Below, in pieces: positions 6,001 to 59,742 of a stretch of 64,000 bases of DNA (position 1 is its first letter; the number at the start of each line of letters is the position of its first letter). This stretch comes from Candidatus Omnitrophota bacterium (GTDB lineage: Bacteria > Omnitrophota > Gorgyraeia > 2-01-FULL-45-10). Location of the stretch: NCBI GenBank assembly GCA_026387175.1, contig JAPLME010000010.1, positions 62,096-126,095 on the forward strand, given 5' to 3'. The position numbers were made by a program, and so were the translations under genes. The notes under the pieces were generated by a model. It saw only the letters and a program-made list of their open reading frames with translations, did not search any database and had not been told where the DNA came from.

Positions 6001-9000
6001 CTCACGACGGTCAGGACCATGTCGGATATAGTATATGACACACTTGGCCTGATGATTTCATATAAGGATGCGGTAACCCAGAAGTCGTATAATATTAACG
6101 GCGATCCGAATTCTGGGATTAAATTCAATACCACGGATACCGTTATAGGTTATCATACGTCAAAAGATAAAGATGACGCAGGGAATCTCACAGGATACCC
6201 TCTCGGAGGCACGGTCATATCAAAATCGGATATTCAGGGTGATGTCACAACCTGGGTATATGACGCGCGTGACCGGCTCGTGAAGATCCAGAATCCGGAC
6301 GGCAGCATAACAGAGTACGTCTACGATGGCGACACCACTCTTATCAGGAAAGAGATCTACACTCTTGCCGATGGCAAAACAAAGACCACTAAAGAATATG
6401 ACGCAGACGGCAGGCTTGTGAAAATAGCTAACCCTGACGGCACCACGATCACATGGCAGTATGACACATTGGATAGGCTGAATATAATAACTGACGCGGA
6501 TGGCATGACTTCTACTTACACCTACTATGGGAATACTTCGATAATAAACTCGATCGAGGATTGTGATAAGAATAGCAGCGTCGTTAAGAAACGGCAGGTC
6601 TACTCCTATTATGACGCTTCCAGAAATCTTGTCGCAGCTGTAAATCTGACCAGCACCTCGGCATATGAAACTTATACTATAACCGAAACTGATCTCGACC
6701 CAGGCTACCTCTCATTCGGCGGGAGCGACTATCTCCAGCTTCCTCTCATACAGTTGAAACAGAATGGCACTATTGCGATGTGGGTGAAACTGAGCAACAC
6801 AGGTGACATGGATATCTATGGCGATGATGCATCAGGAAAAGGCGGCGGCCTGCAGGTGAAGGATGGATTTTTCTGTAGTGTTGTGGGTGCCAATAGATGG
6901 TCGACCGGTGTAGCGGTGGCGGCCGATAAATGGTACTACGTTGCGCAGGTATTTACCAGTACATCGACCACGACTTATATCTACGACGCTGATGGTAATA
7001 AATTATCGGGCGCGACAAAAGCCCTCGCCATTACCCAACAAAATCCGGCTGTCTGTCAGCTCCAGGTAGGAAGATCCTCGACAGACGTTGCTTTAGGCCT
7101 TAACGGTTTCAAGGGACAGATCGATCAGCTTGCGATATATAATACGGCGCTTTCAGAACAAGAGATGGATATGGGTAGGTATTCCGAAGGATCTGCCAGG
7201 AGCATGACCCAGAAGCTTATGGCATTCTATTCGTTCAATGATGGCACCGCGACCGATCTGACCGGCAATAAATATAACGGTTCATTTATCGGAGATCCGT
7301 CTTTTGCCATGGGGGCCAGGCCTGGGGTAAAAACCAGCTTTACTGCCGATCAGTATGATAAGAATGGCACATATATAAAGTCCTATCTTCCTGTTTTTGG
7401 GAGCTGCCCCATAGCTACGGCTGCGCTTTGGCCTAGCGGATGCTGGTCTCAGTCAGGCTTGCAATCGTTTTCTGCAGGTAATGTGAACGATGGAGGCAGC
7501 AGCATCGCTTTTCATACAGACTCGGCTGCTGTTGGTTCATGGCTTACACTAGATGCAGGCTCCGCAAAAGCGTTTACCGGAGTTACGATCTGTTCCGGAC
7601 GATCGATCCAGCCGAATGTTTCCAAATGGGAAATCCAATGGTCCGATAACGCTTCATCGTGGACTACAACAGGAGATAAAATCGATCTTAGCACCAATTA
7701 CGGTGGTTGGGTGGAGGCGCGATGGGCAAGTACCGCAGGCGCCCATAGATATTGGAGATTATATAAGCTGAATGCAGCCTCCGGCGGCGATTATGTCAGA
7801 GAAGTTCAATTCTTTACAGGGACCGATAAATATGCCAATGCCAATCCTGTGTCGAACACCGCCTTTGTTGCGTCCCCTGCGCCTGTACCGCCGATAACTA
7901 CCGGGCCGATTGGACTGACAGTAACTACGCCGCAGGCGAGCACTGCTTCTTACCCGCCGCCGGTAGTTACTTCGGTGCAGGAAGATCCCAACACCCCCGG
8001 TATCCTTCTTGTCACCTGGGGAGATAAGGGCGGCACAACGCAGACGCAGCGAAAATTTGACTTATCGACAAAGGATTATGTGCTGAATCCTGATGGCACT
8101 ATCTTCGAAACATCGATAGCTTTACCTGCCTTGGCTCCGTCAGATACTCAGACCCTTAATCTCGACGGCGGCGCTTCCATAAAGTATTGGGACCAGCCGT
8201 ACGCAGACGGCGCGTTTTACGTAACCGCATACCAGAATTACGATAACAAGGGTAATGCAGTAGGCGAGGTGCAGTATATCGGCCAGGCGCGTTCTTCGTC
8301 CGGGACGCTTCCTGTCATGACAAAACTGTCCGATGGCGGTTTCGCGCTCGTAGGGTGGGATGAAGGCAAAAAGGAGCTATACTATACCGAAATTTCGCCC
8401 AAGATGAGCGTCTCTTCGAATACCTCCCGCACGGATATCAAGTATGATATCCTGGGCCGTCTCATGACATATACCGATGTATCGAGCTCCTCCGCCTCGC
8501 CTGACCTTGAGACGACGACCGATAGGTCGGAGACCAGATACAATGCCCTCGGCCAGGTCACCTCATATATCGAGACGACGGCGAGCAAGGAATATGGCAG
8601 CGCTATATATCTTGAGAATACTAAGAATATGAGCGCTATCACATACAATACCCTCGGTCAAATGACGGAATATGTGGAGAAGAGCCACGATATCAGTACC
8701 GCTCCCGCTTCGGAGAAGATGCTCCTTGACACTGAGACCACCACGACGCGGACCATAAAGACTTATGATAAACAGGGCCGGATGACGGAGTATACGGATG
8801 TGATCGCGCCGGTGAGATCGAATGATGCCGATATTTCCATGATCACTACGACTAAGACCGTAAAGGATATAACTTACGACCCTTCGATCGGAGGCATGAG
8901 CGGATATCATGAAGACTCCAATGATAAAGGCGGCATGGTGCGAATGGATGATGGGAGCGTTACGTACGCGCTTGACATTACAACGACGACAGACCGATCC

Positions 9001-12000
9001 GGCGTCATATATAATTCCCAAAACCAGATCGCCGGATATACGGATAAGATCACGACAGACGGCGATACAAAGATCGAAACTAAGACTATTTCCGGGATGA
9101 AGTATTCGCGCACCGGACGGTCGGCCGGAAGCGTTACAAAGACGCGTGAGACCGGATCCACCGTGTTGGACGGCTATACATACGCGCTTGATTCTACTAC
9201 GACTACCACCCAGACCGATCTTGTTTATAACAAACTGGGGCAGCTTACTAAATATACCAATGTGACGATCGCCGATGCCGCCCCTGAGCGTGCCACTACA
9301 CTATTCATGAAGAATATCAAGTATGACGTGACGGGCCGCATTATAGACTATGACCAGAGTACAGTTGAACGGGCCTCTAATACATATGACCTTAACGGCG
9401 ACGGGGTGCTTGATCAAGGCGATCTTGATGCCCTGACAGAGTATATGGTCAATAAGGCGAAGGCAGATCCGGGGTATGGATATTGCCGCATCGATATCAA
9501 TGGCGATAACAAGATCGATGCAATTGATATCGATATTATCAAGAGTGCGTTGAAACCCTTTAGCGAGGGCGGTTTTGATATGGATGGGAACGGCTATATC
9601 GACGATATGGATAAACAGATATTCAGTCAAAATCTGATGGCGATCATCTCCGAGCACGCTAATATTCAGGGTCCCATTTATGACCAAACCACTCTCGCTC
9701 GTGTTCCCGAAGATACTACGGGGAGGCAGTTCGTCTGTGATGGCTATCTTACCGGAACTAATTATAAGGTCTATGTCGATGGAATAGAGCAGGCCCAAAC
9801 CGGTGTATATACGGTGAGTGAAGCAGATGAAAAAACTACCATCACCTTTAATGCACGAATAAATACCAGCAGTACAGTAGCTCTTAGTCGGCTCATCCAT
9901 GATGCGCAGCCCGGATGGGATAAGCGCTTTGACTTGAATGGCGATAATAAGATCGACCTCTCCGACCTCGAAGAGGCGTCAAAGAGGATACTGGAAATTA
10001 AAACACTCCTTATAGAGAAGTCCAAGGATATAGATTACCTTGCTCTATCTACGAGCGGTAAATATGACCTGAGTTATTCCGGAGGCGGGTACGACCTTAA
10101 TAACGATGGTTATATAAGCGCTGATGATATTAAGACATTCTTCGCGACCGTTACTGTTGATGGCCAACAGATGCCGCTCTACCAGGCATGGCTGCAGGAT
10201 ATGATGGGGAGCGTTGTTCTCAAAAATCCCTCCGGGGGTACGACGGGTAATCAATTCGTCACGAACGGCTCTCTTTCAGGAAAGCTTTGCACTGTCTATG
10301 TCAACGGGGTTGCTCAGGTGCTGAATTCCATCGCATCTAACGGATATACAGTGCTTGAGACAGGGACAGGAAATAATATCGTCAGCACAATTACCTTAAA
10401 AGCAACTATAACTGATCCAAATGCGAAGGTAGAGCTCTCCGTGCGTAAGCTTGAGAATAGCGTTACCCTTGCCAGCGTTTCCGGAGATACCACCGGAAAG
10501 CAGTTTACCCTAGACGGCTCTCTTGCGGGAAGGCTTTACACGGTCTTTGTCGATGGGACAGCTCAGGTTCTGAACAGCGGATATACGGTGAGCGAAATGA
10601 CGGACAGCACTACACATGCTGTTACCACCACGATCACCTTCACTACTGCGATACCCATCGGCAAAACAGTGAAGCTCTCCCAATGGGTGACCACGCCTGA
10701 CAATATCGCGACGGCTAACCTGAAGTCAAATCTCCTACCGCTCTACGTTAACACGGTAAAGGATGGCAAGACGGATGAATTAATGGTTGAAAACCCGTAC
10801 CTTGAAAGCCTTGCTGCCCAGATTAATAAAGTCATAGCGCAGTGTTTTAACATTAAAGCGACAGCACAAGGCACTCCTGGCACGTTTAACTTCTCCAGTT
10901 ACCTGTATTCATTAGCTAATGCTAAATATAACATCACGCTTGATAAGGTAATAGGTACCGGCGATGGATCGACCACGAGATTTGAGACCGGCCTTACGCT
11001 CGCAGATAAGAGCTATCAGATTTTTGTTAATGGTCAACTCAGTAAGTCGACCAGCTACACTGTGGATAGCGCTGGCGCTGTAACTTTCACTGCGGCTCCC
11101 GCCTCCGGCCAGGAGGTCAAGATATCGATTACACAGGTAAGGGAGAATAAAGATATAGGCCCCGGTAATGGGTCGACCAAGAAGTTTAATATCGGCTATC
11201 CGATCGTAGGCAAGACGGTCAATGTCTATGTGGATAGCGTGGTGAACGGCGTGGTAGTGAGCAGTGCGCTAATGGCTAACAACACCTATGACGTTGACCC
11301 GATTTTAGGTACCATTACTTTCAAAACAGGTACTCCGGCACCGCCAGCCAATACGAAAGTCAGGATAAAAGTGGACAATTATGACTGTTCCGTTGATGAC
11401 GCCGCCAAGACCATTACCTTTAACAATAATATTTCTACGTCTGGCATGGATGTCATGATCAAGATCAATAGCTCCGTAGGCACACTTTCCGCCCTGGATA
11501 TCATCCAGACTTTTGACAGCAATGGCAATAAAGTCCTCGATATAGCCGATGTTAATAAGCTATGGAACGACTGGAAGAAAGGAAATTTCGTATTACCTGG
11601 AGACCCTACTGATACTACGGGTGCGGGATTTAGTGGTATTTACGCCCTGGAGCTGGCAAAGTTCCTCGGCGGCGGGCAAGCTAATGGCGCTATCTCCGGG
11701 GTGCTCGATACATCCTACAGCTTTAAACAGGGAACCGCCGACTTTATGGCATTGCTCTCTCTGAGTTCTGGCTTATGGGCAGCGACGGACTATTTAGAAT
11801 TATTGAGCAGGTTCAAAGGCTTCACCAATATTGCCGTGTATGACAGTAATTCCGATAAACAGATCAGCGCAGTAAGGGATACTATTACGGGAAAAACAGC
11901 TGATGAGACCGCGTTTAGTAATCTTATACAGGATCTTCTGTATAAGAGCGGAGTAATAAAGAAAAGTAGCCTCGCCAGCGATGACCCGCTTCTTAATCTT

Positions 12001-15000: not shown

Positions 15001-18000
15001 AGAGTAGAAGACAAAGACGGCATTCTGGATGAATCTAATGCCGCCGCTATTACAGATACCAATACACAGAGCCTCCTGCGCCGCGCGCTTGCGGAGTACG
15101 GGGTTAATGGCGCGATCGCGCTTATTGACATAACCAAGACCACGAAACGCCTATCCGCCTCATTCAACAATCTGGGCCAGATCGGCGCTTATACCGATGA
15201 AAGCACAGGTACCGATATAACTGGCTCGACCAGAACAGCGATTTTCAGCGGCATCACTTACAACATTAGCGGCCAGATGGAAGGATATAATAATATCTCG
15301 CAGGAAATCGTGAAGGATGGGGACGCGATAGTATACACGACAAATTCCGAGACTGATCGCAGAGATATTAACTATAACCTGAAGGGCCAGGTCAAGGGTT
15401 ATACAGACTACTCATATTCCAAAGATGAGACCTATATACCCAATCTTATAACCGTGAATACTATGTCCGATATCCTCTACGATTCACACGGCATGGTCCT
15501 GAGCTCCAAATCGCTGACTAATGAAGCCTCGACCATGGAATGGATCGACCCGACCGGTAGCAATTGGATTACAACGGGTGCGGATGACCTTAAGATCGAA
15601 AAGTGGTATCTCTCTGCGGACGTTAAAGCCTCATCCGCGTTCACCATTGCTGCTACCGTCACCGATAATAATGGTATCGAATATAAGATCTGTCTGGTGA
15701 GCGGCTACAACGTCGGGGATCCGAAGAAGATATATGATTATAACTCCACCGAAAAAACTATTACATACTACCTTGGCGATGTTGCGAATGGAGAATGGCA
15801 TAACATTAACGTAAAAGAGAGCGATTCACTTAGTTCCGGCCTTAAGTGGCTTATGAAGCAAACGGTCAATGTCGATTTCGGCCATCTGAAGAATATCAAG
15901 ATAAAAGGGTCCGATGTGACGATAAGGAACCTCAGCCTTGCCGAGAATCAAGAGCTTGCCAATATAGAGACGGTTTCGCTCGCTACTTCAGAGTGGATAG
16001 CGCCCGATAACACCACGAAGGCCAATTTAAAGGATACGGTACCTGCCGACAAACCGGCGCTTATTGGCTCAGGATCCGGTACACTTTCGAAGACCACATC
16101 TATCGAAAAGTCCGATGTAAAATATGATCCATTAAACGGTAATACCCTGTCGTATTCCGAAGAGTCGCGCTCCAGCGCAAGTCCCGATCTCAAGACTGTA
16201 AAGACCCTCGCGAACATGGCCTACAACGGCCTCGGCCAGGCGCTCGGATATGATGAGTCGAATCAGGATATAGAGAATGCCCTTGTAATCACGAGCCCCG
16301 CAGGTTACAGCGCCTCGATCAGGAGTATCGAGCCCGGCACCGATTGGGGCTATGGGCCGCGCATAGAGGGTAAGTCATTCCTGAGCTTTGATGTAAAAGC
16401 GACTAACGATTTTAGTTTTTCAGCCTGGGTACATGTCAATAACGGTGTCAATGATTTCACAAGCTGGTATTTTGTCACCTTTAAATCAGGCGATGGCGCC
16501 AATGAGTCCGGGGGCGGCGCCGACCGGAATGTCCTTATCTACCTCGGCTCGAACGCGACCGATGGCGGATGGCAGAGTTACACTTTCGACTTGAAGGATA
16601 TCTGCTCCAGATATATATCGTTATCACCGAAATATTTGAGCGTGGGAGAATTCCATATTACAGCTTCGAATGTTTCGATGAAGAATCTTAAGGTCTCGCA
16701 ATACGAAGATGGGAAGGACCCTACGACAGTTTCACTCGATCCGAAGCTCTGGACAAAGCCGGGCGCAATCTCGTTAGATAACGGCCCCGCGGCGGATACT
16801 AACATCTACCAGGTTCAAAAAGTGCTGACCGCGGTAAGCGAACTTTGTTTCCAGATAAAGCCGGGAGCCGGCGATTATGGCGTGAAAGCCCGTCTTGGAG
16901 TCAAAGATAGCGAAGGCGTAGAGAGTATTTATCTTATAGACTTCGTATCGGATCTCAATAGCGTAAAAGGAACTCTCACTCTTGTGCCCAATGCGGAGAG
17001 CGATAGTGATGTTAAATATACCCTTAGATATAATATGGGGGATCTTACCAATGAGCCGCAGGAAAGCGGTTACTACACTATCAGCGTTGATTTGCAGAAT
17101 ATTCTCAATAACGCCGCCGCGCTGACAGACAGTAGCGTCCAGCTCTTGTCCTTAAATTCCGTTGTATCGCATGGGGACGTTGATTTTATTAATAAGACAT
17201 ACACTTCCGATGAGCTTACAAAGCCTTCCGGCGATGAGGGCGATGCCTCCATGTTTACCAATCCTGCCGCTATTGACCCCGATGCTCAGGGCAGTTGGAT
17301 CAATAGGTACCTGTATTGGTCCGGCAACAGTACTTGGCCGAGCGGCTATGGCGATGAGATGTGGCATAAGCAGTGGCTAAAGGTTTCGTATATACCTAAA
17401 GCCTCTGCGGCAATGACGCTCTATGTAAAAGTTGTCGATAAAGCCGGTAATTCCTATAACCTTACCTATAATAAGCTCGAGACGGCTTCCGGAACGCCGG
17501 AGGTAACGAAGATGTGGAATCTCGCCGAAGACCTGGCGAAGCAATATAAGAACGCCGCGGCGTTCGACCACGTCAAGTATATCTCCCTCGAATGCGCCGA
17601 CGGGACCTTCACCAGCATAAAACTATCGGACAGTTTCAAGGAATGGGATGATCCCACGCGTATTATCGACATTCCTACTCAGAAGGAAGCATGGGTTCTG
17701 AATCCGTTCAGGGACGATACCCAGGATTACACCATAACCACAGACACAACCACAAACAGAACATACTATAAGGTCCGCTCGGCCGCCTTGAGCGATACAG
17801 AACTTTTTATGAACCTCAGAGACGCTGCTGATACATCGGATATCTATAATGATATCCTTAAGAGCAAGAACAAGCTGACATTCTATCTCAGAAATCTTGA
17901 AAGCGGCAAAGATTATATATTTGCGGATGGCGAACCGTTCATTTGCTCGCTCAATGTGCAGGATAAGGACGGCGTTAACCATTCGATCGTAGTCAATTCG

Positions 18001-21000
18001 TCCGAGCTTAAGCCAGGCTCAAAGCCGTGGCTTGCAGTCGATACCTCCGTTGCCGGTGCGACAAAGGTCACTATAGATCTTAAAGCCGCTTCCATTGCCG
18101 ATGGTATGGATCCTGAAAAATTCGATGGGTTGAGGCAGATCTCTCTAAGAGGCGGATACTATGATATTAGCAACATCGGGCTTTGGGAGAATGACGAGAC
18201 AGCGAATACCTCAGTTTTGCCCAGTCTATTAAACCGCCAGGACTGGTCAGTCTCCTTCATTATGCCCCGTGGCACAAATATAAGTTCGAATGCCGAGCTT
18301 GCCTTTAATTCCGGCTCCCGCTTAAAAGGTGAGGCCATTCGCCTTGTCGATGGCATTAGTACTGACTCGGGCGACCTCGGGCTGACTGATAGAAATCATA
18401 TAACCTTCAAACTTAAATCGATCGGCGCGACCACGCTCGGGTCGGACGGAAGGCCATATGCCCTTGATGAGAACTTTGCTATGAATGTCAAGGTTATGGG
18501 CACCGATGGCAAGACCTATGACATTAAGATCTCTCTCTTGGATAGAGAGAAGAAGCTGGATTGGACGATCATCGATCGTGATCTGGCAAAGCTCTTTAAT
18601 GATAACCTGCCAACCGATCCGTTAACCGGGCTGAAGGATGATGTGATGATAGACCATATCATGAACTTCTCGGTCGAAGGAGTTCAGTTCAGTATAAAGG
18701 ACATACGGTTTACCTCGAACGCGCAGACGGTAGTCGCCTTTGACGCGACGCGCAATCCCCAAACAATGTTTAAGGATGATGTGGGTGTATTAAGGAAGGA
18801 CAATGTAAAGGTAAAGGTTGAGTCTGTAGACCAGGACGGACACATTATCAAAGACCAGAACGGGAGAGCTATTCTGAAGCCGGAGACCTACACGGTCACA
18901 TTCCGAACCGGCGGTGTGCGCGGCACCGTTCTTGCGCCCGACTCGAATAAGGATATAGTCTGTTACCTTGGCACGGCTAATTCGTTATCCTCCGACCCTC
19001 AACACTATGAATTCAGCCTTGATTGGATATTGCGGAATGCTCTTGATAATAGCAAGCATCTCCCCGGTGAGCACATAGCCTTTGAAATAGTTGATCCTGA
19101 TATTAAAAATCCAGTTTCTCTTATTGGCGGCATTGACATTATAACGCTGGCACCATCATCCAACTCTGTATTCTCGCTCGTGAAGAAACCCGAGATCGAG
19201 GAAGCCTACCGTAAATACACTATTAACGACTGGGCGCAGTATGGGATACTTGCCTCTCCCTCGGGTTCGGGGCTTTTCAGCAGCGATTTTATGAACGCAC
19301 TCCAGGAGTCGAAGGTTATACAGCCTACCAAGGATTCGACCACGACCCGATCCGATATGGTTTACAATGATTTCGGCCAGGTAGTCTCTTACACGGATAC
19401 CAGCTTAAGCGCCGACTCCCCCGATCTTGAGAGCGTCTTGACCGTTACGGATGTAACCTATGACGAACATAACCAGATGATAAACCTCGTCCAAAATACG
19501 GAGGATTATTCAAAGAACATCAGGCAGTCGGTTATCGCCAAGGACAACGGGACGAACGTCCTTCACCTGAAGGCATCGTCCCAGTATGACTATACTACGA
19601 CCTTCTACGCTGAAGATACGAACGATATCCTTACCAATGGTAAGCATATCAAGTTCGAAGTTAATCAGGATGAGTATGGAGAGCTTTCGTCATTCGAATT
19701 AGACCTAGCTTTTGGCTCGGTTCCCATCCCTTCTGAGATTTCTCTGGTGAATTCTAAACTGCATGTGGTGTATAAAATAGATAAGACAGGCACCGCCGTG
19801 GCATCGTTATCAGGTGACCACAATACCCTCTATCTGCCATTTACGATGTCACAGAAGGCTGGGACCAATACATATGTCTTCGATAGAAGTATCTACACTG
19901 ATATAAAGGACGCTTTCGACAAATGTATAAAGGGCGCAGACGGCAAATCTTACAACGACTATCGAACCGAACTTACGGCGCTTGCCGCCATTCCGAACCG
20001 GAACCCGACCCAGCAAGCTAGATATGATCTTCTGACTGCGAAAATTGGCTCCCTGGCCGGGCTTGATGATAGTAACTATAGCATTACTGCGGGATCGGTT
20101 TTCTGTAAGTTTACGGCCAATACCAAGGTTATTTCCTCCTACTCAAGTGTCGACAACGTTGTAAGTTTTAATGTGAACCAGAATAGCCTGGGGACGCTTT
20201 CGTCATTTGACCAAATCGTTAATGTTTATCTTGTACAGTCCTCTAGCCATTATGAATATGACGCATATGAAGGCTATGTATATGATTCTTCTCTCGAACT
20301 ATATATGTCTGATGGAACGCAATGGTATCGATGGTATCCCCCCGCGCCAGAAGAGGGACAACCCTACACTTATTATTCTCGTGACTACGGTTTACATACG
20401 AGGAGAGAAGTATCTGACACAACTAATGTGCCGGCGCCTGGCCTGACAACCACTGCTCCTCACGTTATTTATGAGGCGGGCCGAACCGTAAACTCAATAT
20501 CATCCGATGGTAAGACTATCTATCTACCGCTTGTATTGACGTTGAATCCAGCCACCAGTATGTATGTATTTAACAAGAATGTTATAACTGATGTACAAAA
20601 CGCGCTCAATAATCCCCTCGCGGGATATACGTGTAGCATAGCAAGCGACCCCACATTCAATTTCACATCCGCTGAAGTTCCCATAACCTATTCCGATGGC
20701 AGAAACGTCAGATTCGATTTTGATCAGGATGCCTATGGAACTCTCTCATCATTCGAGATAAATATGGCCTTTGCGCTTACGCAGGGCCAGAGGATGGATG
20801 GCCTGGGCTTGACAAGCCCTAATCTCCGCGTCGTCTATAGGAAGGGCGATACTATGGCATCACTATCCTCAGATGGTACGACCCTCTATCTGCCGCTCAG
20901 ACTGACACAAGTAGGGACGACCAATACATATACCTTCGATACCAGTGTCCACGAGGATGTAAAGGCCGCGATCAACGGGTTATGCGGCTTATATATCACA

Positions 21001-24000
21001 GAACTCGCGGCCCTTAAGGCCCTCACCCAAAGAAGCACGACTCAACAGGCACGATATGAATTGTTGACCGCAAAAGTGGCCGCTTTTACCGATCTGGGCG
21101 TTAATGGCCTCAATAAATACAGCTATAGCCTGGCAGAATCCGCCTTTGGCATTATACCGATGCCCGCTACTGTTACCGCCGCCTACTCCGGTGATAGCTT
21201 AGACTTGACCGGCAAGGAGTACATCAGGTTCGAGGTTGACCAGAGTAACCCCAAAGACCTTTCATCTTTCGAAATAGACATGAACTTTAAGCTCAGAGAG
21301 GGCCAGACGCTGGCCGGGATCGGCCTGACAAATCCGAAACTCCGCGTGATCTATGGGGCTGACGTTAAGGAAGCATCAAAGTTCCTTGACGGCGGTACCC
21401 TCTATCTGCCGCTTGATGATAACAAATTGAAACTGAAAGAAGGAACGACAAATACATATATTTTTGATACCAATGTCCATGAGGATGTGAAGGCCGCGAT
21501 CCAAAAAATATTCGAGGGATATGCGACAGAGGCCGGCAATCTTGCCAATGCTCCCAGTATGACGCTGAGGGATGAAGATAGATATAAGTGGTTGATGGCA
21601 CAAGTGATTGCCTATACCGGGCTCGACGACTATAGCTATTCACTGGCAAGTCCGGCGTTTGGCCTTAAGCCCACTCCTGTCAAGGCCTCTACCGCATCAT
21701 ATAACCTCACGCCGATCACCGGTAAGAGCGTTCACTTCGAGGTTTATAAACAGAATGGCCCGAAAGATCTTTCATCTTTTGAAGTACAGCTGAATTTCAC
21801 GAAGAAAGATAGTGAGGCGATAACGACTCTTGCAATGAATCCTCTTGGTTTGACGACTACGACACCCAAAGTCGTCTACAGGGCGGATGTCACAACGGCA
21901 TCGAAGTCCCTCGACGGCGGCACCATCTATCTGCCGCTCACTTTGACATTGAAAACGGGGACGAACGATACGTATGTGTTCGATAGGGGCAATATTGATA
22001 CTGACATAATGGCCGCGCTTGGCGTTTCGGCCACGACGCTGGGCGGATATACCTATAGCCTGACAAACCCCCAGCTTGGCTCTATAGGCTCTCCGGTTAA
22101 GGACGCTGTTGCCAAAGAGGTCTTTATCAAGGACTTCTCATTCAGGCCTACGGTTGCGTGCGATGTCGACGAATCTATTCTTACATTCGTTACAAGTGAG
22201 TGGACAGTCGATGATGTGCGTAAGAAGCTCGATATAGAAGCGAGCTCTCCTGTATACGTAGCGTCGAAGGTTCTTACCGGTGCGGACAGCGCCAGGACCG
22301 ATGGAAGGTCGTTCATGTCCATCGACATCGTTACACGCGCCAATGCAAAGTTCGGCGTTAAAGTGCAGATCGCCGCTAATGACGGCGCTGGCAACAATTA
22401 CAATGGAGATTACCTCGTCCTATACGATATATGGAACGGCCGCGCCGAAATCTGGCAATATAAGGATTATAACGATAAGAACGCGGTAAGCGGCGCTCCA
22501 ATACCCGGCCGCAAACTCGTCCTTATCGACGGCGTCAATGAGATCGGCTCGGGAGGATGCGAGGCGAACGAATGGTACCATTTCGAGAGTGACATCGACA
22601 AGCTCCTGATGAAAGCTCTTGCCGTTACCAGCATCAGTAGTTTTGAAGTGAAAGGCCTCTATACAAGCGGCCAGGTCAGCCTCGCCAACCTCGGGTTCAG
22701 TAAAGATGAGGCGACAAAGACGGACCGTCAGGAGATCGGGCTTGGAGACAAGAAATCGGGAGACCCGGATTATGACCCAGCATATATATGGCATGCCGCC
22801 GCAAAGTCCGACTATATCAATTCCGACGGAACTTTAAATACCGCCTCGGTTGTGAAAGACTTCGATATTATGGATATAACCGGTTTTGCCAATTCCGGCG
22901 CTTCCGACCCGCTGTCCGAATACTATCTCTATGCCGATAAAGATAGTATCGACTCAACATCTAACAGTATCATCGATCCATTATCTGGTAGTATGAGAAG
23001 GTATCTGTCATTCGATGCGGCCGCGACATCCGATTTCAAGATCTGCTTTGAAGGGCTCAACAAAGCTGGAAACGCAGTGAAAATATATTTCGTTAATTCC
23101 AATTCCGGCACTGACAAAAAAATCGCGACACCGTATACCGATTCCAGCGGCGCCACCGTATACGAATATAATTTAAAGTCGGAGCTCTATAGTAATAATC
23201 TTATCGAAAACTACTATACTAACGGCGCCTGGAACCGTTTCTGTTTCGATCTTGTGGGGATAATCGGAACCAGCTCCTTTACCATAAATAAAGTGAACCT
23301 CTACGGCGGCGCCTTGAAGGTTGCCAATGTGAAGCGCGGGAATGATATCGTTGCCGGCGGTAATGATATGTTTGGCCATCCGCTCCTTGACAATAGATCG
23401 GCCTCGACCGTATCGCTCTTCTCAACCATGAATGAGATCGCCTGGAAGAAATCGGATAAAGCGAGCAAGGCAACCTCTACCATGACCTACACCGGCGTAA
23501 ATCGGTCCGACGATTTTATCGCATCGAATGGCACAGTCGAAGATACAGAGCCGTATAATGTAAAGACCACGACTATGCGCGGCGGCTCGGTATATCCGGA
23601 CGGTTCGCCTGCGACCAATATAAGCTATGATGAATTCGGCCAGATCTCCGGCTATAGCGACTGGATCACCGATTCGACAACTCCTAACATAGTCACGATA
23701 AAGAAGACGGACCATATTATGTATGACGAAGCCGGAAGGATGCTTGCTTATATCGAGACGAAATCCCAGAAGCCCATTTGCAAACTCAGTGACCCCGACA
23801 AGGCGGACATAGAGAAAGCCCTCATCAATGGCGGTGTCATCGGGGTGGATGATCCGGGGTATCAGGAGGGATACGATATTAACGGTGATAAGCAGATAGA
23901 TATGAGTGATTATATCAAACTCAAGAATTCTCTCACCCAGTCGCTGCTTGATTCTTCTCCTCGTCAGGCGATCGTTGTGGCAAATAACTATGACGAATAC

Positions 24001-27000
24001 AGCAAGTATAATATTGTCGATGATTCCCTCCTTACGGATATGGACCAGAAATATCTTAAATATTACGAAGAGTTCCTTAATGCCCCGAAACAGAATTTCC
24101 TTAATATAAACAGCCTTTCGGAGGCCCAGGTGAACGCCCTGATCAATGATGTCGGAGTGGCTGAAACTATAAATCTTGCGAGAGACGGTACCGTGACGCA
24201 TGCCGATGCCGTCACGCCGGGTTCGACATATCTTATCAGCGGGTGGACAGGGGGAAATGTCACAGTTCCGGAAAGTATGATCGTTCAGTGGCGGGAAGAG
24301 TCGTGGTCGAATCCTCGATTGGGATGGCAACCCGAAGACCTGGATTATAATAAAGACGGTGTTATCAATGGCTCGGATGGTACCAGTTTTGCGGAGATTG
24401 GCACTATGGTTGCTGCCTTCCAAACCCTCTTCGGGTCCGGGGCAAAGCTAACCCCGGAGCTGAGTGCGGCATATCACGCCCTTGATACTAATGGGGATAA
24501 CAAGATCGATATTCTGGACAAAAAGCCTGCTTCGAATCCTGCTAATACCGCGTTCAATGCTTATATTGATGCCCTTTTGAAAGCGGACGGGGCGGTTTCG
24601 CAGGGAGATGCCGGGAGAAAATTCCTCTCCTATGTTAATCTAGTCACGGCGGCCAATATAACTAAGTGTCAAGACCGCATCGCCCAAGTAAACAGAGATT
24701 TAGAGGCAGCCGGGTCGATCAACAGGCTTACGCCCCTTACACCCAACGATATCCTTAGCGGGATAATGGCGAGCGGCCAGAGTTATCTCGACAATCTTGC
24801 GCTCGTCACGAAGGATAGCATAGATACATCTATGCGTACAATCTCCGCGGCCAAAACCATCGTTACGACACTTAATATGAGCGCGGATGATGTCCTTAAA
24901 AATATATTAACGGACGGCGGGAAGTTCCTCGGGAACCTCGCGCTTGCCACGCCGGCTAATATAAATAAACTCCAAGACCGCATCGGCACTGCAAACGGTG
25001 TATTAGATGCGACCAATCAAATCAAGGCTAATCTAGTTATGTCTGTGAAAGATATCTTTAATAAGATATTGACGGATGGCAAGCCGTTCCTCGATAACAT
25101 AGACCTTGTCATAGCAACTAATATAACTGCGTTTCAAGGCCTCATTACCACGATTAATAATGCATTGCCAACAGGGACAGATAAACTTACGACCCCCCGG
25201 AGCGCGAACCAGGTCTTAAACGATATACTAACCGGCGGTAAGCAGTTCATTGACAATATCAATATCACGGATGAGAGTAAGAAACTCTTTACGGCAGCCC
25301 GAATAACCGCAGCTCAAGTTTGCATTGCCAAAGCAAATGAGGGATTGGCGGCGACTGACCAGCAGCTTACGCCTCTTAAGCCGGATGATGTCCTTAACGG
25401 TATAATATCGTACGGTAAGAAGTTCATCGATAATATAGGTCTCGTCACAGCCGGCAATATAACCACGCCTCAAAACTGTATCAGGGCGGCTAATTTGACA
25501 TTAACCGCCAAGATTCAGGTCCTGACAGCGGATCAGATTTATAGCAGGATAATATCGGGCGGCCAATGGTTCCTGAGCAACATTGCGCTCGTAACGGCGG
25601 ACAATATAACAGCGGCGCAAAACACCATTACCAAAGCTAATTTAGGCCTTACACCCCCGACCGTAAGCCAGCTCTTTGACGGGATAATAGCGAGCGGTGA
25701 GCAGGGCTATGAATACGATGTCGATGGTAACGGTCAGGTCAACCTTCAGGACAAGCACACTGTCGAATATGACGATATTGTGAAGAGGATTAAAAATGGT
25801 AATGCTTCCTCAGGTGATTATGCAAGACAAGCTGTCCTTGATAGCATATTCAATGACTATATTATCGCCAAAGGCTCTGTTTCCCGCGGGGAAAAGTCTG
25901 ATGTAAGGCTGAGTGACGCTACGGTAAATTCTGCCCTGGCTGGAGACAGTAAATTCTTATATTCCCGCTCTACGGCGCCGGTATTTAAAGTCGAAGATAC
26001 CGCAAAAGATAAGAAGATCTACTTTAAGATAATCAACGGCCCCGTTATAAAAGAGACGGATCCCGCAATCACATTTAATATCTCAAAAGACGGCGCGGTA
26101 AATGACTTTATGATAGATGAAACGGATGGATGGACATACGTGAGAGAGATCTCGTCCGTAGCTGACCGGGTGCTCATCGATTATAGTAAGGGCGAGAGAG
26201 TACTTATCGACGATGTAGAACAAAAACCCGAAACATATAGAATTGATACCGATGAAACTACAGGAGCCAAGACTATTGTATTCCTGAATTCACCGGTACC
26301 CGAGGGCAAGTTGGTAACGATAAAAGAGATAAAGACCGAAGCGTCTCCATATGTAAACAGTGATACATCCGGCGTAGATCCGGTGACCAAATGCGTTTTT
26401 GACGGGCAGCTCATACCTCTATCCGGTCTTGCTAATGAATATGAGATAAAGGTGGACGGCGTGGTTCGCCCGCATTTTTCCACGACAGACCCGAAATACG
26501 AGAACTACACGGTCACATGGGACGCAAAGACCGGGTATACGACCGTTGTTTTAAAGATGATGGACAGGTCGATCACTCCGACGTATACCACTGACGGTAA
26601 TAATCCTTGGTGGTATGGGTTCCTGGGCAAGCAACTTACGCTCGGCAGAACTATAGGCAGCGCGACTATAGACTGTGCTTATGATCCTCTCAACACCTAC
26701 GTGATATATCAGGACGGCAAAGAGCTAAAGGCCTCGGACTATACCGCCTCATCCGCGCAAGGCGGGAAGACGTTGATAGTATTTACCAATTCTTTACCAG
26801 GCACCGCGATCTTAAAGGCAAAATCCCTGGAAGGTAATCCTGTCATTGTAGCAACATATGCCCGCGTTACTACACCAATTAGTCGTACTTCAACCGATAC
26901 CAATAGGACAAGATATGCTATGAATGGATTCCTCCGCTCCTACGATCCTCTCGTACCCACAGGCGAACCTGCGGGTGAGCTGAAATTGTCGAGCCTGTGG

Positions 27001-30000
27001 CGCCAAGGCATCTTTTACCTTGAGAATGGGTATAATGCAAATCTCGATAAGAATTCTGACGGGTTCATAGAGGTCGCGCCATATCTGACAACGACCGATA
27101 CGACGTCGAAGCTGAGCGGTCTCCTCGACCAATGCAATATCACCCTGGCCCAAGGGTCGAATCCTACGAAATTCTACGCTGACCGGAACAGTGACGGCTA
27201 TATAGATCAGGCAGATGTTAACGATCTGATCCAATCTAGTGATGAGAACCTGAAAGCATGGGGTAATGCTATTCTAGGTATCCTCAATAAGAATAGCGAC
27301 GTTAACAGTATAATTGACGACAATGAGAGACTATGGATTGCGGATCCGGCTCCCAGTGAGGCCGCTCAAAAGGACGCCGCTATGATCCGCAGCTATCTCC
27401 TTACGCCGATGCATATACCCGGCACGATCATTGTGGATAAGGGGTTTGATTATATCGACCAGATGGATATTAATATACTTAAAGACACTTCGACAGAAGA
27501 TGTTGACTGTGTGACGAAAAAAGAATGGGCTAAGACTATCAAAAATTACCTTGCCAATAATAATAAGCGCGATCAGGGTATTCTCTATTGGCAGAGTGAT
27601 TATTATTCCAGCCATATTCTTCCGGATATGGATGGTAACGGTGTTGTAAATAATGCCGATATAACGGTCGTTGTGAAAGATGCCCAAGGCCACGAGACAC
27701 GGGAAAATAAGTCCGACATTTTGAAGGGATGGCTGAACGGCGATGTGCCCCAGGGAGATTACGAGCATATCATAATGCCCGGCGATGCAGGATGGGACTC
27801 TAGGTACGATCTCAATAATGACGGCATATTAAGCGGAGCAGACCTGGAAGTACTCGCAAGAAATCTAACCCTGCCCCAGGATATTGTCACTGAAGCAAAT
27901 AAGACATTGAGTGACGACAACAAGCTTTCGGATCTGACCACGTCCCAGGTTCTTAACGGCATAAAAGCGAATGGCCAGGGCTATTTCACCAATGTCAGGC
28001 TCGTCACGGCGGCTAATATCACCACGGTTCAAGCCCACCTCAATGAGGTGAACAATTTATTGGCGGATGGTAGCAAGTTTACGCGCGCTACTGAAAACCA
28101 GGTCATGACCGCAAATCAGGTCCTCGATCAGATAATATCAGGCGGCCAGAAATTCCTCGACAATATCCTGCTTGTCACAAAGGATAGTATAGAGAGTTCT
28201 CAAGCGCATCTCAATGATGTGAACAGTCAATTGAAGGGGGTTAAGTTTACGCTCACCGAGGGCCAGGTCATGACCGCGGATCAGGTCCTTAACGGTACAA
28301 TAATGAACGGCCAGACGTTCCTGAGCAATATTATGCTTGTCACAAAGGATCGTATAGTCGATTATCAGACTTCGACCAAGGCGATAAACGATGGGTTGGA
28401 TTCAGGCAATCAACTTACGTCCTTTACCCCCGACGAGATCCTTAGCGGGATAGTAGCAAACGGGCTGGTGTATTTCACCAATATCAATCTCGTCACAGTA
28501 GATAATATAACCACGTCTCAGGCCCATCTCAATGAGGTGAACAATTCATTGCCGAACGGTAACAAGTTTACACGCGCTACTGAAGACCAGGTCATGACCG
28601 CGGACCAGGTTCGTGAAGGTATAATAATGGACGGCCAGAAGTTCCTCGATAACATCAAAGATCTCGTCACGAAGGAGAATATAACCAAGTCTCAAAACTA
28701 CATCGTGGAAGCAAACAAGACATTATCGGATGGTAACCAGCTTACGCCACTGACCGCGGACCAGGTCCTTAACGGTATAATAGGGGGCGGCCAGAAGTTC
28801 CTGGACAACATCAGTTCCACACAGGCTGTTTTGGATGAATTTGTTCCTCACGGATTTGTCGCTCGTTTTAACGAATACATGATAAATAACGCGGCGCTTG
28901 TCGATGATCCGAAAGTGAGCACTGATGCTTATAGCGTATTGCTTGCCACTCATCCCGGAATTACAGATATCAATCTCGACCATAAAATAGACCATTTTGA
29001 TCTCGATACCTATTCTCTTAATTCGGAGACGCGTACGGAACGTGATCATGTGACCTATGAGACTTCGGGCAGGCTCTTTGGATACCGCGATACTGTTACA
29101 TCCCCTTCAACCCCATACCAGGTGACTGAGAGCATCGTATCGGACATCTATTATAACGAGAAGGGCCAGATGGAAGGATATAATCAACTGGATAATAGTT
29201 CGACCTTCCTCGAGTTGAACGGCAAAGACAGCGATTATGCCATTACGACCGAGAATGGGACTATGCCGGATCTCAATATAAGGAATGGGTACCTGAATTT
29301 TGATTTCAACGCCGCCACAGGAAAGTCATTCGAAGTGGGGGTGAGTATAGAAGTTGATAAATATATAGGGACATCCTTGACTCAGGAAGAGTACACTATC
29401 CATTTCGCTCTTGGTGAAAATACCGGCGAGATTAGCTACGATTCCAATACGCCATTCGAGGCTACCTATAATCTCGGCGCCGAATCAGATCTCTGCGACC
29501 GTAAATGGCATTCGGCCCTTCCCTTAAATCTGAGCCTTTATAGGATAATTGACCAGATAGCCAGTAAAAATGGCAGTCCTGCCGGCGCCCGCTATAAGCT
29601 TAACCATGTAAAAGCCATAACGCTTAAAGGCGAAGATGTCCAATTTAAAAATATATCGCTTTCGGCGGATAGCCTTCTCACCGATATAAAACCGGTTTCA
29701 GTCAAAAACTCGCAATGGAATAATGTTATTAAGACTGATCTCGGTACCTTCAATGCGCCCTACGAGAGCGAGCTTACCATAAAGGATATCAAGCGTAGAA
29801 ACTTCAAATATAATGAGCTGATGCAGTCCACCGGCTACCAGGATACGGTCTGGAGTTCCGATAACCCGGCTATCGAGACCGTAAGGACCATTTCCGCCAA
29901 CGTCTATAATGGGCTCGGCCAGATCGTAAGCTCTGACGAGAAGACCGAGACGCGCCAGAACTCGCTTACGGTGAGCTCTCCCGGCACATCGCTTTACGGT

Positions 30001-33000
30001 ATCGTCAGTAAGAAGGACAACATCTTATATAAAGACGCGAACCTGAAGTATTACGCGGATTCTATGTCCGCGGGAGTGCCGCTCGGGTTCCTCTCTTTTG
30101 AGATAGACGCCAAGAAGATGGAAGACCTGCGCGATCCTAGCCACAGTTTTAATGTCAACGCCCCGTCCGAGGATTTCGTCATTTATGTCGCGGCGAAGGT
30201 AAAAGTCGATGAAATAAACGGTAAGACAGAAGACGTCCTTGTAGCGGTGCATATTACCGAAGGTACAGAGGGGTGGAGAGATCCTTTAAACGAAGAGAAG
30301 ACAGACGAAGCGATAGGTGTGAAAAAGGTATACGACTATTATCTCTTAAACCATGTGAATAGCGATGGAGTCATTACCGACGCAAAGGATACCGGCCTCA
30401 GCATCTATGATTTTGATGCCAAAGAGAATGACAAAGATAACAATGAAGTGAAGCGCATAGCTCTCGCCAAGGAAAATGGGACCCTTGCCATAGACAGATG
30501 GTTCCGCATAGAAAGTATCAATCTCGAAACGATATGTGCCGGTAATATTCTTTCAGATAGCCACAACACACCATATGTCTTCGACCACGTTAAGTGGTTC
30601 TACATACGCGGCGGCAGTTATACGCTGCGCAACATGGTAGTTGCGGCGGATAAGTACAAATCAAATGCGGAGAAGATCTCTCTGGCGAGCTCTGACTGGC
30701 AGGTCTATGCCAGCAAAGCCACCATTATCAGTAATGATGATGCAAGCGGTTCTTCACCGGAGTCCCTCATACTCGATATCAGCACCGATTCGAGCCAGGA
30801 TACGTCAATCTCCCCCACTGACGCGGCCGGTAATACCCAGAACCTTAATTACACCGGCAAGAACTACCTGGTATTTGATTACAAAAATGACACAGAGGTT
30901 CTGGATACGCGCGACACCTTCTATATAGCCCTGTATGTTACAGGCAAGAATGGCAAGAATTACTCCCTCTATTACTATACTAATAAAATCGGTTCTCCGG
31001 TCTCAAAATATGAAACCATAAGCGGCGGATGGGCAAATTTCGGCATGGCTGAAGCATGCAAGAGCGATGTTGATTACCAGAATAAATTCAACACCGAATA
31101 TGTAGCCAAAACAGAAACAACTCCGGAAAAGGTGGGGGATGGTTTTACGACCGTTGTGAGAAATATCGATCAGGACCTGCTCGACCAGTTCGGCACCGGA
31201 CTGCAGAAGATAGGGTCGCTCTCTATGGTTACCAGGGGCGGCAAGTATCAGATCAGGAGCCTGAGATTTACCGCTTTAACCACTGCAAGTCCTACAGCGG
31301 ACTCTTGCGGCAACATTAAATACACTGACATACAGGGCAAAGAAACCAAGGTCCAGCGCGTGGCCCTTGATAAAAAACGGTGGAAAGCGACCAAGGGCGA
31401 TATATCGCTTGCGAGCGCCGGCAAGGTGACAACATCCCAGAAATGGGATATGAAGTACAATACGCAAGGCCAGCTCCTGTCTTATAAAGACAAATCTTCC
31501 AGTTCGACCGCGAAGATCATCTCTATGAATGGCGCTAAGGATGCCACTGTCTCTGTAACCGCCTCGCCATCAGAACCAGTATATCCATGGGGTGTCACAT
31601 CAGGAACAGCCGAGTTCACGCTGCTTATCGGAAATATGTATGACGACACCGAAAAGAATAATAATATTGTTATCTACTTCGGAGACTCTAAGGTTGGCTA
31701 TCAACTTACTATAAGGGCGACAGATGACCTGGGAGCCGACGCTTGGGCATGGCAGCTTGCCAAGACGGACGCGGAAGGAAACACTATGGGCCAGAGTGAA
31801 ACTAACAGTGGCCTGTGCGTTACCGGCAAGGAAGCGGATGGCTGCAAGCCGCTCAAAAAAGGCGGTTTCTATAAATTCAGAGTGGAGATATCGTCAGGCT
31901 ATGTCAGGTTTAAAGAGATATATACCAATACCGTAATAGAGCTGAAAGATCCCGATTCGCACTGGGACTGCGGCGCTCCGATCCTGAGGGTATCTGCCCG
32001 GAGCATGGACGCATCTATCGGCGCCATGTCATTTAAAGACTGGAGGACCGACGCTGACTATACTTATAACAATAACTCGCGCATCACGCCTTCCACCCCA
32101 TCGAATACGAGCGTAAGCATAACCGATCTGAGCAACCAGACCACCAAAGTCGATGCCATGTCGTACAATGAGAACGGGCTTATTCTTTCTCAGCGCGTTC
32201 GAGGCGTCGGCGCGAGCTCGCTCTACAAATTTACATATATAGATACTGATAAAGCCGCCATTATTGAGGTCAGTAACAGCACATCCTTTACTGTCCTGGA
32301 TGGGAATAATAATAAGATGTATTCCGACAGCTGGGCTGAGACGGGATCATCGGACACAGATCCGTCAAAACTGAAGAGGGACGCGGGCGCGGACAGCGTT
32401 AACTTCATGAGAGAGGTAAGCGGCTGGGACAAGAAACCGTCGTACATGGCCTATAACAATATCAAGTATGAGACGGTTAATGGGGAAGAGGGTGGGAAGG
32501 TAATAGGCATCGACTATATAGTCGACCATAAAGGGTACAGGTATGAGTTTGACAGCGAAGGGAGGCCGTCAGCGCTTTATGCAAAGGATACTTCTTTCCT
32601 TGCGGATAAAGTCGCCCACGTAACTTATTCATATGATCCCGACCTTGTCGTCAATATATACAGGGATAAATATGACGGCGATCACCATACCTCATTGCTT
32701 AAATTCAAGGCTCATTATGATGCGCACGGCACTCTGATAGCTCTCACGGGTACCGATGTCGGCGAGAACGAGAACTGTTATTCGGACTATAAAGCCGAAA
32801 TAGTTTATGATGAGGTGACCGGCGAGATCCTTACCGCCAACATTATGGAGCTCAGCACTACAGGCGATAATAAGACGGTCTTCAGCCAGTCGCAGGAGAT
32901 TTTCTATAACGGGACGCTTGTCTCGTTCACCGGGACCAGCTGGACGCTGGGTTCATCCCTTTCAAACACTGACGGCAATGTATCACTGGATACCCTTTCC

Positions 33001-59475: not shown

Positions 59476-59742
59476 ATGATGCGTAAAATATGGGCAATTT
59501 TATTAATGATCGCGGGTATGGCCGTTTCGGCGTTTTCGGTAGCCTTGATGAACGATTTTATCATGTTGGCCCGGCCCATCATCTTAATGGGCTCTAAGCT
59601 TCGGCCGAATAACACCGTTGTCGAAAGCGCCGTTGCGATGGCCCTTATAATGTTAATTTTTATGGTGGGCTTGGCGCTTATCGTCATAGCCGGTGTAAAT
59701 ATAATAAAATCATTTTATAAACAGGGAGGGAGACCTTCATGA
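59476..59742 (+). CDS. Small two-helix membrane protein (88 aa), translationally coupled between the two patatin genes
   Basis: A GGTGAGG Shine-Dalgarno sequence then ATGATG at 59476. Two hydrophobic helices (AILLMIAGMAVSAFSVAL, AMALIMLIFMVGLALIVIAGV). Its stop overlaps the ATG of the next gene (ATGA at 59739-59742). The ORF track extends the frame back to 59269, inside patatin 1, which is unlikely to be real. Confidence 0.55.
   Translation: MMRKIWAILLMIAGMAVSAFSVALMNDFIMLARPIILMGSKLRPNNTVVESAVAMALIMLIFMVGLALIVIAGVNIIKSFYKQGGRPS

Follow-up and report, generated by a model that had tools for sequence, protein, structure and literature searches.

A single giant gene of Candidatus Omnitrophota carries a domain repeated in tandem. 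This raises the question of what the repeated domain is, whether it belongs to a known family, and why one protein has several copies of it. The window, that is, the whole stretch of DNA analyzed here, is 64,000 nucleotides long, and the ORF listing shows that one ORF of 18,743 aa at nt 13-56244 of the forward strand holds the whole array. This ORF was assigned as the gene of an Omnitrophota giant protein from the ORF listing, Pfam and neighbor-gene matches. The genes flanking it are exact matches to MCX5678597-603, which are NCBI MAG proteins annotated as Candidatus Omnitrophica bacterium. The window thus comes from such a MAG, and the host protein shares the phylum of the Dockerin-type class of Omnitrophota giant proteins. 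Sequencing runs SRR25046533 and ERR15302175 to ERR15302213 contain this organism. Pfam domains of the host protein (Laminin_G_3, RHS_repeat, F5_F8_type_C and Dockerin_1) are confined to its first 3,200 aa. Dockerin_1 scored 30.1 bits (cut-off 22.9), with the PF00404 match at aa 3125-3180, and F5_F8_type_C (discoidin) scored 30.3 bits (cut-off 28.2). EF-hand-like repeats and a weak N-terminal C39 match are also present. No Pfam match was obtained for aa 10001-18743, and TSP3 (PF18884), a bacterial thrombospondin type 3 repeat expected in large numbers in the Dockerin-type class, had no match at E <=0.01 anywhere in the protein. The predicted combination of dockerin/EF-hand and discoidin domains is that of the Dockerin-type class, which the host protein resembles.

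The array consists of five tandem units at nt 19630-22113 (aa 6540-7367), as the first-pass annotation had proposed for about 19640-22100. When one unit was compared with the whole protein by BLASTP, the other four were found at E = 7.6e-38, 1.3e-23, 3.8e-22 and 6.7e-06. An HMM built from the five units recovered all of them, with E-values from 1e-42 to 1e-79, and no sixth copy in the 18,743 aa. The motifs quoted earlier are present: LSSF[ED] and [TI][LI]YLP[LF] occur five times each, and TNTY.FD is there as well. All units are on the forward strand. U1 (nt 19630-20145, aa 6540-6711), U3 (nt 20692-21204, aa 6894-7064) and U4 (nt 21205-21720, aa 7065-7236) contain an inserted helical hairpin at nt 19918-20061, 20974-21108 and 21502-21621, respectively. 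U2 (nt 20146-20691, aa 6712-6893) and U5 (nt 21721-22113, aa 7237-7367) are without the hairpin, and U2 has instead a 68-aa Tyr/Trp-rich loop inserted at nt 20233-20436. Thus, what had been described as a domain of ~170 aa is a conserved core of ~125 aa with optional insertions, and unit length is not uniform but ranges from 131 to 182 aa. Likewise, the ~80% nucleotide identity reported for the core holds for islands of 24-94 nt alone (with 66-90% identity), while whole units share 46-62% of their nucleotides and 29-49% of their residues. Tandem Repeats Finder did not detect the array. Ahead of each FEV strand, at a distance of 12-18 aa, a short Tyr-containing strand (..V.A.YS..) is conserved; it probably belongs to the following unit, with the repeat register slightly off.

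Does the unit belong to a known family? We took a profile HMM match at or above the curated threshold as the standard of family membership, and this was not reached in Pfam, NCBIfam or PHROGs. When Pfam was searched with the whole protein and with single units, even a limit of E 10 brought nothing beyond chance matches for the units (LSM, E 0.12; AP1AR, E 0.16). NCBIfam gave no match at E up to 1, and the best PHROGs match (E 0.0015) was for one member only, below this standard. The first-pass annotation had named a confident match to a known Pfam/CATH family as its own refutation, and none was obtained in these searches. Furthermore, a structure search of BFVD gave nothing at E <=0.001, and tblastn with U4 found no match in phage and plasmid collections. 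PdpA (6u9e) appeared at E 0.016 with the five-unit profile and was lost with the eight-unit profile, so that we treat it as a chance match. By eye, the unit could be taken for a trimmed relative of other beta modules of the same protein, which share patterns such as G-K-x-I-x-F-E-V and N-x-Y-x-F-D, but hhalign did not support this: the probability was 0.7-0.8% (P 0.066-0.085) against the protein's own family of ~181-aa orphan beta modules and 0.4% (P 0.15) against the adjacent module at aa 7368-7565. Twilight-zone scores were obtained against the small beta jelly rolls CFAP20/FAP20 (DUF667) and GH11/GH12 glycoside hydrolases, and against the orphan protein TM0875 (PDB 1o22), at 2-17% identity. 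None of these has a functional or contextual link to the unit, and the likeness is not evidence of homology. The module is previously undescribed and one of many uncharacterized modules in such proteins.

AlphaFold2 models of U3 and U5 were built on a five-sequence alignment with the probable first strand omitted. The U3 model (pLDDT 77, pTM 0.74) has strands at residues 5-11, 20-28, 44-50, 64-68, 79-85, 144-147 and 151-153 and helices at 86-109 and 116-135. The U5 model (pLDDT 79.5, pTM 0.74) has strands at 4-8, 19-28, 50-54, 68-72, 85-89 and 110-120. The two models are concordant in predicting a beta-rich and weakly jelly-roll-like fold. The earlier interpretation as a candidate novel beta-domain, possibly ligand-binding, is partly supported. 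A more conservative explanation, which we consider unlikely, is that one of the known beta-sandwich superfamilies (Ig-like/FN3, cohesin-like or CBM-like jelly roll) includes the unit as a member too diverged for the searches used to detect, and that neither fold nor family is new. The short tails between units have pLDDT <50, which fits flexible linkers.

The insertions lie at two sites. The hairpin of ~40 aa, present in three of the five copies and missing in orthologues, extends the helix that comes after the TNTY.FD strand, and the U2 loop sits between strands 2 and 3; the 73-aa stretch spanning this loop contains 12 Tyr and 2 Trp. The hairpin was considered as a type I dockerin and rejected, as PF00404 matches none of the units and D-x-[DN]-x-D-G calcium loops are absent from the hairpin sequences. 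In Dockerin-type giant proteins, beta modules that lack annotation recur with paired helices between them (West-Roberts et al. 2023, bioRxiv 10.1101/2023.11.21.568195); these subunits are reported to be CBM35-like barrels, with flanking helices that resemble calcium-binding dockerins. Our units are similar to them in being tandem, ~170-200 aa long, composed of a beta module and two antiparallel helices, invisible to Pfam and of proposed function in attachment. They differ from the published description of these subunits (CAILPI010000004_73) in that the beta part has no CBM match and the helices are inserted within the unit, in three of five copies here and in none of the orthologues, without calcium-loop motifs.

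One possibility is that the units are dedicated carbohydrate-binding (lectin/CBM-like) modules. With five copies, the array would then bind cell-wall glycans of prey or host multivalently and at high avidity, and the Tyr-rich loop in U2 would contribute to a sugar-binding platform. We hold this reading to be improbable. A superposable jelly-roll fold with a sequence-profile match to a CBM35/CBM6-like module was not found for the units. In the alignment of eight units, seven positions are invariant (F, F, L, V, Y, F and one Asp). No enzyme signature was seen among them, and no conserved aromatic or polar cluster was seen in the alignment. Another possibility is that the units are protein-protein docking modules, analogous to cohesins, that bind dockerin/EF-hand repeats of the same or partner proteins and organize a surface complex. 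Cohesins, which have a beta jelly-roll sandwich of ~140 aa, are close to the units in size, and Dockerin_1 and EF-hand-like repeats do occur in the same protein. Nevertheless, we regard a docking role as very improbable.

The module is rare. When 1.84 billion representatives were searched exhaustively with hmmsearch, four matches were obtained, two of which were true: P0001 (E 3e-25) and P0003 (E 7.5e-11). The other two, P0002 and P0004, are false positives due to repetitive sequence of low complexity or RTX-like type. Only three carriers are known in a total of about 15 billion predicted proteins. A homologue index gave no match to the unit alignment, to aa 6395-7400 or to U5 joined to the module downstream; it evidently lacks the known partial orthologues, and these negatives are uninformative. 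Scans for related loci in genome and metagenome contigs confirmed none. P0001 and P0005, both orthologues, are MAG proteins annotated as Candidatus Omnitrophica. So far, all known copies of the module are in giant proteins of a narrow Candidatus Omnitrophota clade.

The unit HMM found one copy in P0005 and one in L006, against five here, although the available orthologues are all contig-truncated fragments. Residues 2-1256 of P0005 align with aa 5366-6665 of the host protein and residues 1133-2152 with aa 7238-8311, and outside the copy-number difference orthologues are about 58% identical. The flanks are conserved as well. Directly upstream of the array is a YD/RHS-like segment (nt 19348-19494, forward strand, aa 6446-6494), which matches other YD segments of the same protein, aligns with P0001, P0003 and P0005, and is kept in orthologues. 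Directly downstream is a second orphan beta-rich module (nt 22114-22707, forward strand, aa 7368-7565), unlike the unit and with no PDB or Pfam match. It is 66% identical to its orthologue, where a single unit precedes it. The block order of YD segment, unit and second orphan module is therefore conserved, with one unit in related genomes. Parsimony of copy number favors an expansion from one unit to five. In a neighbor-joining tree of the units, U4 forms a clade with the orthologue unit (bootstrap 0.98). Of the five copies it is the one nearest to that unit (59% identity to the unit of P0005), and U1, U2, U3 and U5 are further from U4 than the orthologue unit is. Since the orthologue unit groups with U4 only, the tree would equally be compatible with an array that is old and has collapsed in the relatives.

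Where is the array in the cell? In a Kyte-Doolittle scan, a crude method on which the topology rests, the stretch from aa 374 to 11031 contained no hydrophobic 19-mer above the threshold, and transmembrane clusters were found first at aa 11596-11914 and then at 15004-15324, 17111 and 18229. The N-terminal ~11,000 aa are acidic and rich in Thr, Ser, Asp and Asn. Reading the N-terminus directly, we recognized no signal peptide. The N-terminal majority is thus predicted to be free of transmembrane segments, with putative anchors towards the C-terminus. The array lies in this acidic portion upstream of the anchor clusters, and on this ground it is probably extracellular, in a surface protein. The host protein is similar to those of West-Roberts et al. 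2023 in phylum, dockerin/EF-hand and discoidin domains, the long transmembrane-free N-terminal part and the C-terminal membrane anchors. For a SecA DEAD-like domain after the anchors, Pfam gave no match in aa 10001-18743 or, with the limit raised to E 1, in aa 15850-16650, and there was no PDB match. Because the domains in the literature are said to be extremely divergent, the missing HMM match is weak evidence.

Taken together, we give an even chance to the whole reading, in which the units are five paralogues of one orphan beta-rich module that has a ~125-aa core and is not an enzyme, arranged in a stalk for attachment. The copies have diverged to 29-49% identity and gained insertions at two surface sites, and they would stand as beads on a string in a surface stalk. 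The analysis shows the repeats and their rarity, the difference in copy number, the predicted secondary structure and the lack of a family match, and the location outside the cell and the part played in a stalk or in adhesion are inferred. Each unit would add length and present variable loops, and expansion may therefore increase reach and provide more numerous and diverse contact surfaces for attachment to the envelope of a host or prey. For Dockerin-type giant proteins, attachment to surfaces of a host or prey has been proposed (bioRxiv 10.1101/2023.11.21.568195).

The architecture has a familiar parallel. Giant bacterial adhesins carry tandem arrays of extender domains, among them the Ig-like repeats in RTX adhesins. 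Our array shares with them the repetition of a small, diverged beta domain within a giant surface protein, a copy number that differs among relatives, conservation mostly of core residues, and a presumed role in reach and spacing. In contrast to these extenders, the units resemble Ig-like or FN3 domains neither in sequence nor, convincingly, in structure, and the array has only five copies, which are much more diverged and have large unit-specific insertions. A more far-reaching explanation is that the core is a new fold, restricted to a small Omnitrophota clade, in which birth of a module is under way, with a conserved U4 and four fast-diverging paralogues onto which a hairpin or a Tyr-rich loop was grafted. 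We consider this doubtful; if true, the array would be akin to a natural library of binding scaffolds for recognizing prey or host surfaces.

Two recent preprints stress that giant Omnitrophota proteins are nearly all sequence-unique and that their repeat modules are undescribed. Resources on the phylum include 229 complete genomes and the 916-protein catalogue of Nielsen and Lui (bioRxiv 10.64898/2026.06.07.730766). The array leaves this picture unchanged, and orphan modules of such a kind are expected there. These proteins are mostly dark matter for annotation, and the array is a cleanly delimited example; its ~130-aa unit is a small expressible target for structure determination and binding assays. 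The difference between one and five copies, the unit-specific insertions and the rarity of the module therefore make it a concrete case in which to study growth of these genes by tandem module duplication followed by divergence.

A single open reading frame on the + strand (nt 13-56244 of the window, from the ORF listing) encodes a giant protein of 18,743 aa, and about aa 6540-7367 of this protein consist of five tandem repeat units, all on the + strand: U1 (nt 19630-20145, aa 6540-6711), U2 (nt 20146-20691, aa 6712-6893), U3 (nt 20692-21204, aa 6894-7064), U4 (nt 21205-21720, aa 7065-7236) and U5 (nt 21721-22113, aa 7237-7367). Within what corresponds to aa 6543-7363, the first-pass annotation had described five copies of an unassigned ~170-aa domain with about 80% nucleotide identity in its core. 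The five copies are real. Its motifs recur five times, every 170-182 aa; BLASTP of one unit against the whole giant protein recovered the other four (E = 7.6e-38, 1.3e-23, 3.8e-22 and 6.7e-06); and a profile built from the five units scored each at E 1e-42 to 1e-79, with no sixth copy in all 18,743 aa. The length of ~170 aa holds as a motif spacing, but the units are not uniform and their conserved core is ~125 aa. Likewise, high nucleotide identity (66-90%) occurs only in islands of 24-94 nt, whereas whole units are 46-62% identical in codon-aligned pairwise comparison (29-49% as protein). The array is invisible to Tandem Repeats Finder. Because the units are so diverged, an assembly artefact was dismissed as the source of the copies.

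From N- to C-terminus, the core comprises a G-K-x-I-x-F-E-V-x-Q strand, LSSFE-I-x-M-x-F, a variable loop, GLT...L-R-V-V-Y, S..DG.TLYLPL, GTTNTY.FD, a short helix (.V..D.KAA) and Y.YSL..P.FG. Past the short helix, U1 (nt 19918-20061), U3 (nt 20974-21108) and U4 (nt 21502-21621) carry an insertion of 40-48 aa. In U2 this insertion is missing, but 68 aa (nt 20233-20436) form a loop between strands two and three; 12 Tyr and 2 Trp occur within 73 aa that include the loop. Neither insertion occurs in U5. Upstream of each FEV strand, those of U1 and the orthologues included, lies a short conserved stretch, ..V.A.YS.. with an invariant Tyr, at a distance of 12-18 aa. It is probably the true start of the unit, which would make the C-terminal tail as delimited the opening strand of the following unit. 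AlphaFold2 models of U3 and U5 were made from an alignment of the five units alone. The U3 model (mean pLDDT 77.0, pTM 0.74) has strands at 5-11, 20-28, 44-50, 64-68, 79-85, 144-147 and 151-153, and a helical hairpin (86-109 and 116-135) between strands 79-85 and 144-147. The U5 model (mean pLDDT 79.5, pTM 0.74) has strands at equivalent positions and only short helices in place of the hairpin. The C-terminal tail falls below pLDDT 50 in both. The two models agree on a predicted beta-rich core, in which the hairpin would be an excursion lengthening a helix common to all units.

The view that the domain is novel and unassignable survived the searches. Pfam searches with the whole giant protein and with the single units, E being allowed up to 10, returned nothing credible for the units and no confident known family; NCBIfam gave no match, PHROGs no consistent match, and Foldseek against BFVD none. 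In the PDB sequence search with the five-unit profile, PdpA was a marginal match (E 0.016) and was lost with an eight-unit profile (best E 0.41). By eye, the first strand and an N-x-Y-x-F-D strand recall the other orphan beta modules of the giant protein; this kinship was unsupported by hhalign (probability <1%, P 0.07-0.15). Weak structural matches of the unit models, none near confident, include GH11/GH12 enzymes, which are jelly rolls. FAP20/CFAP20, also among them, is described as a beta jelly roll (PMC6994238). With both groups being jelly rolls, the weak hits lean towards a compact jelly-roll-like sandwich. The unit may be a member of a known sandwich superfamily that has diverged past detection, although the tests run gave this no support; they gave none to a cohesin-like docking module either.

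The unit is rare. An exhaustive hmmsearch of its profile against 1.84 billion cluster representatives, standing for ~15 billion predicted proteins, gave four matches. Two of these were repetitive false positives; the genuine ones, P0001 and P0003, are pieces of orthologous giant proteins truncated at contig ends. P0001 comes from the NCBI MAG GCA_018815945.1 and shares a 90% cluster with P0005 (2,404 aa, MBU0895976.1) and P0006, all three labelled Candidatus Omnitrophica bacterium; P0003 comes from a JGI metagenome. No further unit was found in scans of representative genomes and JGI metagenomes or by tblastn in phage or plasmid collections.

P0005 is colinear with the giant protein: its residues 2-1256 align to aa 5366-6665 (58% identity) and residues 1133-2152 to aa 7238-8311 (47% identity). 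Both alignments overlap on one unit (P0005 ~1130-1252), whose left flank matches U1 and right flank U5. With the unit HMM, a single copy was found in P0005 and likewise in L006, a distant orthologue (JGI 3300063051 contig Ga0598267_0253087). Neither copy has the hairpin, and in both cases the module that comes next is the counterpart of aa 7368-7565 of the giant protein. The conserved block is therefore a YD segment, one unit and the downstream module, and the giant protein has five units in that slot. In L006, an in-frame stop lies between unit and downstream module (860-894); it may reflect an error in sequencing, a gene that is split or a pseudogene. In a neighbour-joining tree (107 ungapped columns), the P0005 unit and U4 are sisters (bootstrap 0.98) and share 59% identity, equal to that of the flanks; U1, U2, U3 and U5 share only 34-55% with U4. 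The conserved copy is therefore U4. By copy-number parsimony, a lineage-specific expansion from one to five units is favoured, the new copies then diverging fast, although the tree taken by itself would fit just as well with the collapse of an older array in relatives.

Other repeats surround the array. A very large YD/RHS-like block occupies aa ~570-2000 (nt 1720-6012), with copies up to 76% identical in self-comparison, and short YD segments are dispersed at aa ~2700-3100, 4900-5100, 5360-5430, 6430-6500, 7860-7930, 9670-9740, 9920-9980 and 11170-11230. They bracket groups of orphan beta modules, the segment at aa 6430-6500 lying just upstream of the array and that at aa 7860-7930 downstream, which makes the modules look like excursions from an interrupted YD sheet. 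A second orphan family of ~181 aa has at least seven copies (nt ~15556-30831; aa 5182-5371, 5442-5637, 5613-5783, 6220-6437, 7648-7838, 9745-9928 and 10092-10273) and more in P0005, and matches neither PDB sequence profiles nor Pfam. Helical repeats of ~55 aa (LTP..D.LNGI..GQ.FLDNI.LVT..NIT..Q) form two arrays, nt 24613-25704 (aa 8201-8564) and nt 27763-28854 (aa 9251-9614). P0005 has no counterpart of aa ~8311-8609, so that the two proteins also differ in copy number here.

Recognised Pfam domains of the giant protein are few and confined to its first 3,200 aa (RHS repeat, Laminin_G_3, F5_F8_type_C, Dockerin_1 and weak EF-hands), and aa 10001-18743 (nt 30013-56241, ~8,700 aa) have no Pfam match at E <=0.01, even in the part where members of this protein class would be expected to carry a divergent SecA-like domain. 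A weak Peptidase_C39-like region (PF03412, E 2.7e-4; 21.2 bits, just short of the cut-off of 22) lies at nt 1225-1479 (aa ~405-489), with an NCAAAAL-type Cys motif ~45 aa upstream at aa 361; N-terminal C39 domains have been described in such proteins (West-Roberts et al., bioRxiv 10.1101/2023.11.21.568195). A candidate JAMM-like motif (HSHPVMPAD...D) was seen by eye at aa 18425 (nt 55285). In composition the N-terminal part is acidic, with abundant Thr, Ser, Asp and Asn, and a Kyte-Doolittle scan gave no transmembrane-like segment at aa 374-11031 and clusters from aa 11596 onwards. GC skew is ~0 in the first 34 kb of the ORF, rises to +0.10 to +0.23 in the last 16 kb (window 40000-56000) and falls again past the stop codon, probably an amino-acid composition effect of the Ala/Gly-rich C-terminal part. 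The genes 3' of the ORF are ordinary bacterial ones, including an Lgt-like membrane protein and a cold-shock protein (by eye), two patatin-like proteins, an ArsR-type regulator and a proton-conducting transporter subunit; four neighbour products exactly match NCBI MCX5678597-603, from a MAG labelled Candidatus Omnitrophica/Omnitrophota bacterium. The patatin-like phospholipase genes are a tandem paralogous pair just 3' of the giant gene (nt 58230-59465 and 59739-60956) with lipoprotein-like N-termini, an arrangement also present in several Logan assemblies (SRR25046533; ERR153021xx and ERR153022xx runs).

This layout matches the Dockerin-type class of Omnitrophota giant proteins, which combine dockerin/EF-hand and discoidin domains, a transmembrane-free N-terminal majority, C-terminal anchors and unannotated repeating beta modules of ~200 aa linked by paired helices, and are proposed to attach to host or prey surfaces (West-Roberts et al., bioRxiv 10.1101/2023.11.21.568195). 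Two further features listed for the class, thrombospondin type 3 repeats and a divergent SecA-like domain, were searched for in the giant protein and not found. Repeats are the rule in these proteins, with nucleotide tandems mostly dissolved and domain architecture persisting (Nielsen and Lui, bioRxiv 10.64898/2026.06.07.730766); the five-unit array fits this description. The array is one more orphan repeat module of the kind known from these giant surface proteins of Omnitrophota and is presumably extracellular. Across the eight units, seven positions are invariant (F, F, L, V, Y, F and one Asp), which suggests a non-catalytic array. It may instead be a dedicated lectin/CBM-like array, a reading that found no support in the tests run; the ligand binding considered in the first-pass annotation is putative. 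In a surface stalk, the units may be strung together like beads, where their multiplication would add reach and would multiply variable surface loops contacting the host or prey envelope. The module is a rare, beta-rich orphan with no family match, present in five diverged tandem copies against one in orthologues and bearing insertions at two sites. Orphan modules are expected in such proteins, so the surprise is modest; the most useful result is the one-versus-five copy-number contrast together with the unit-specific insertions.
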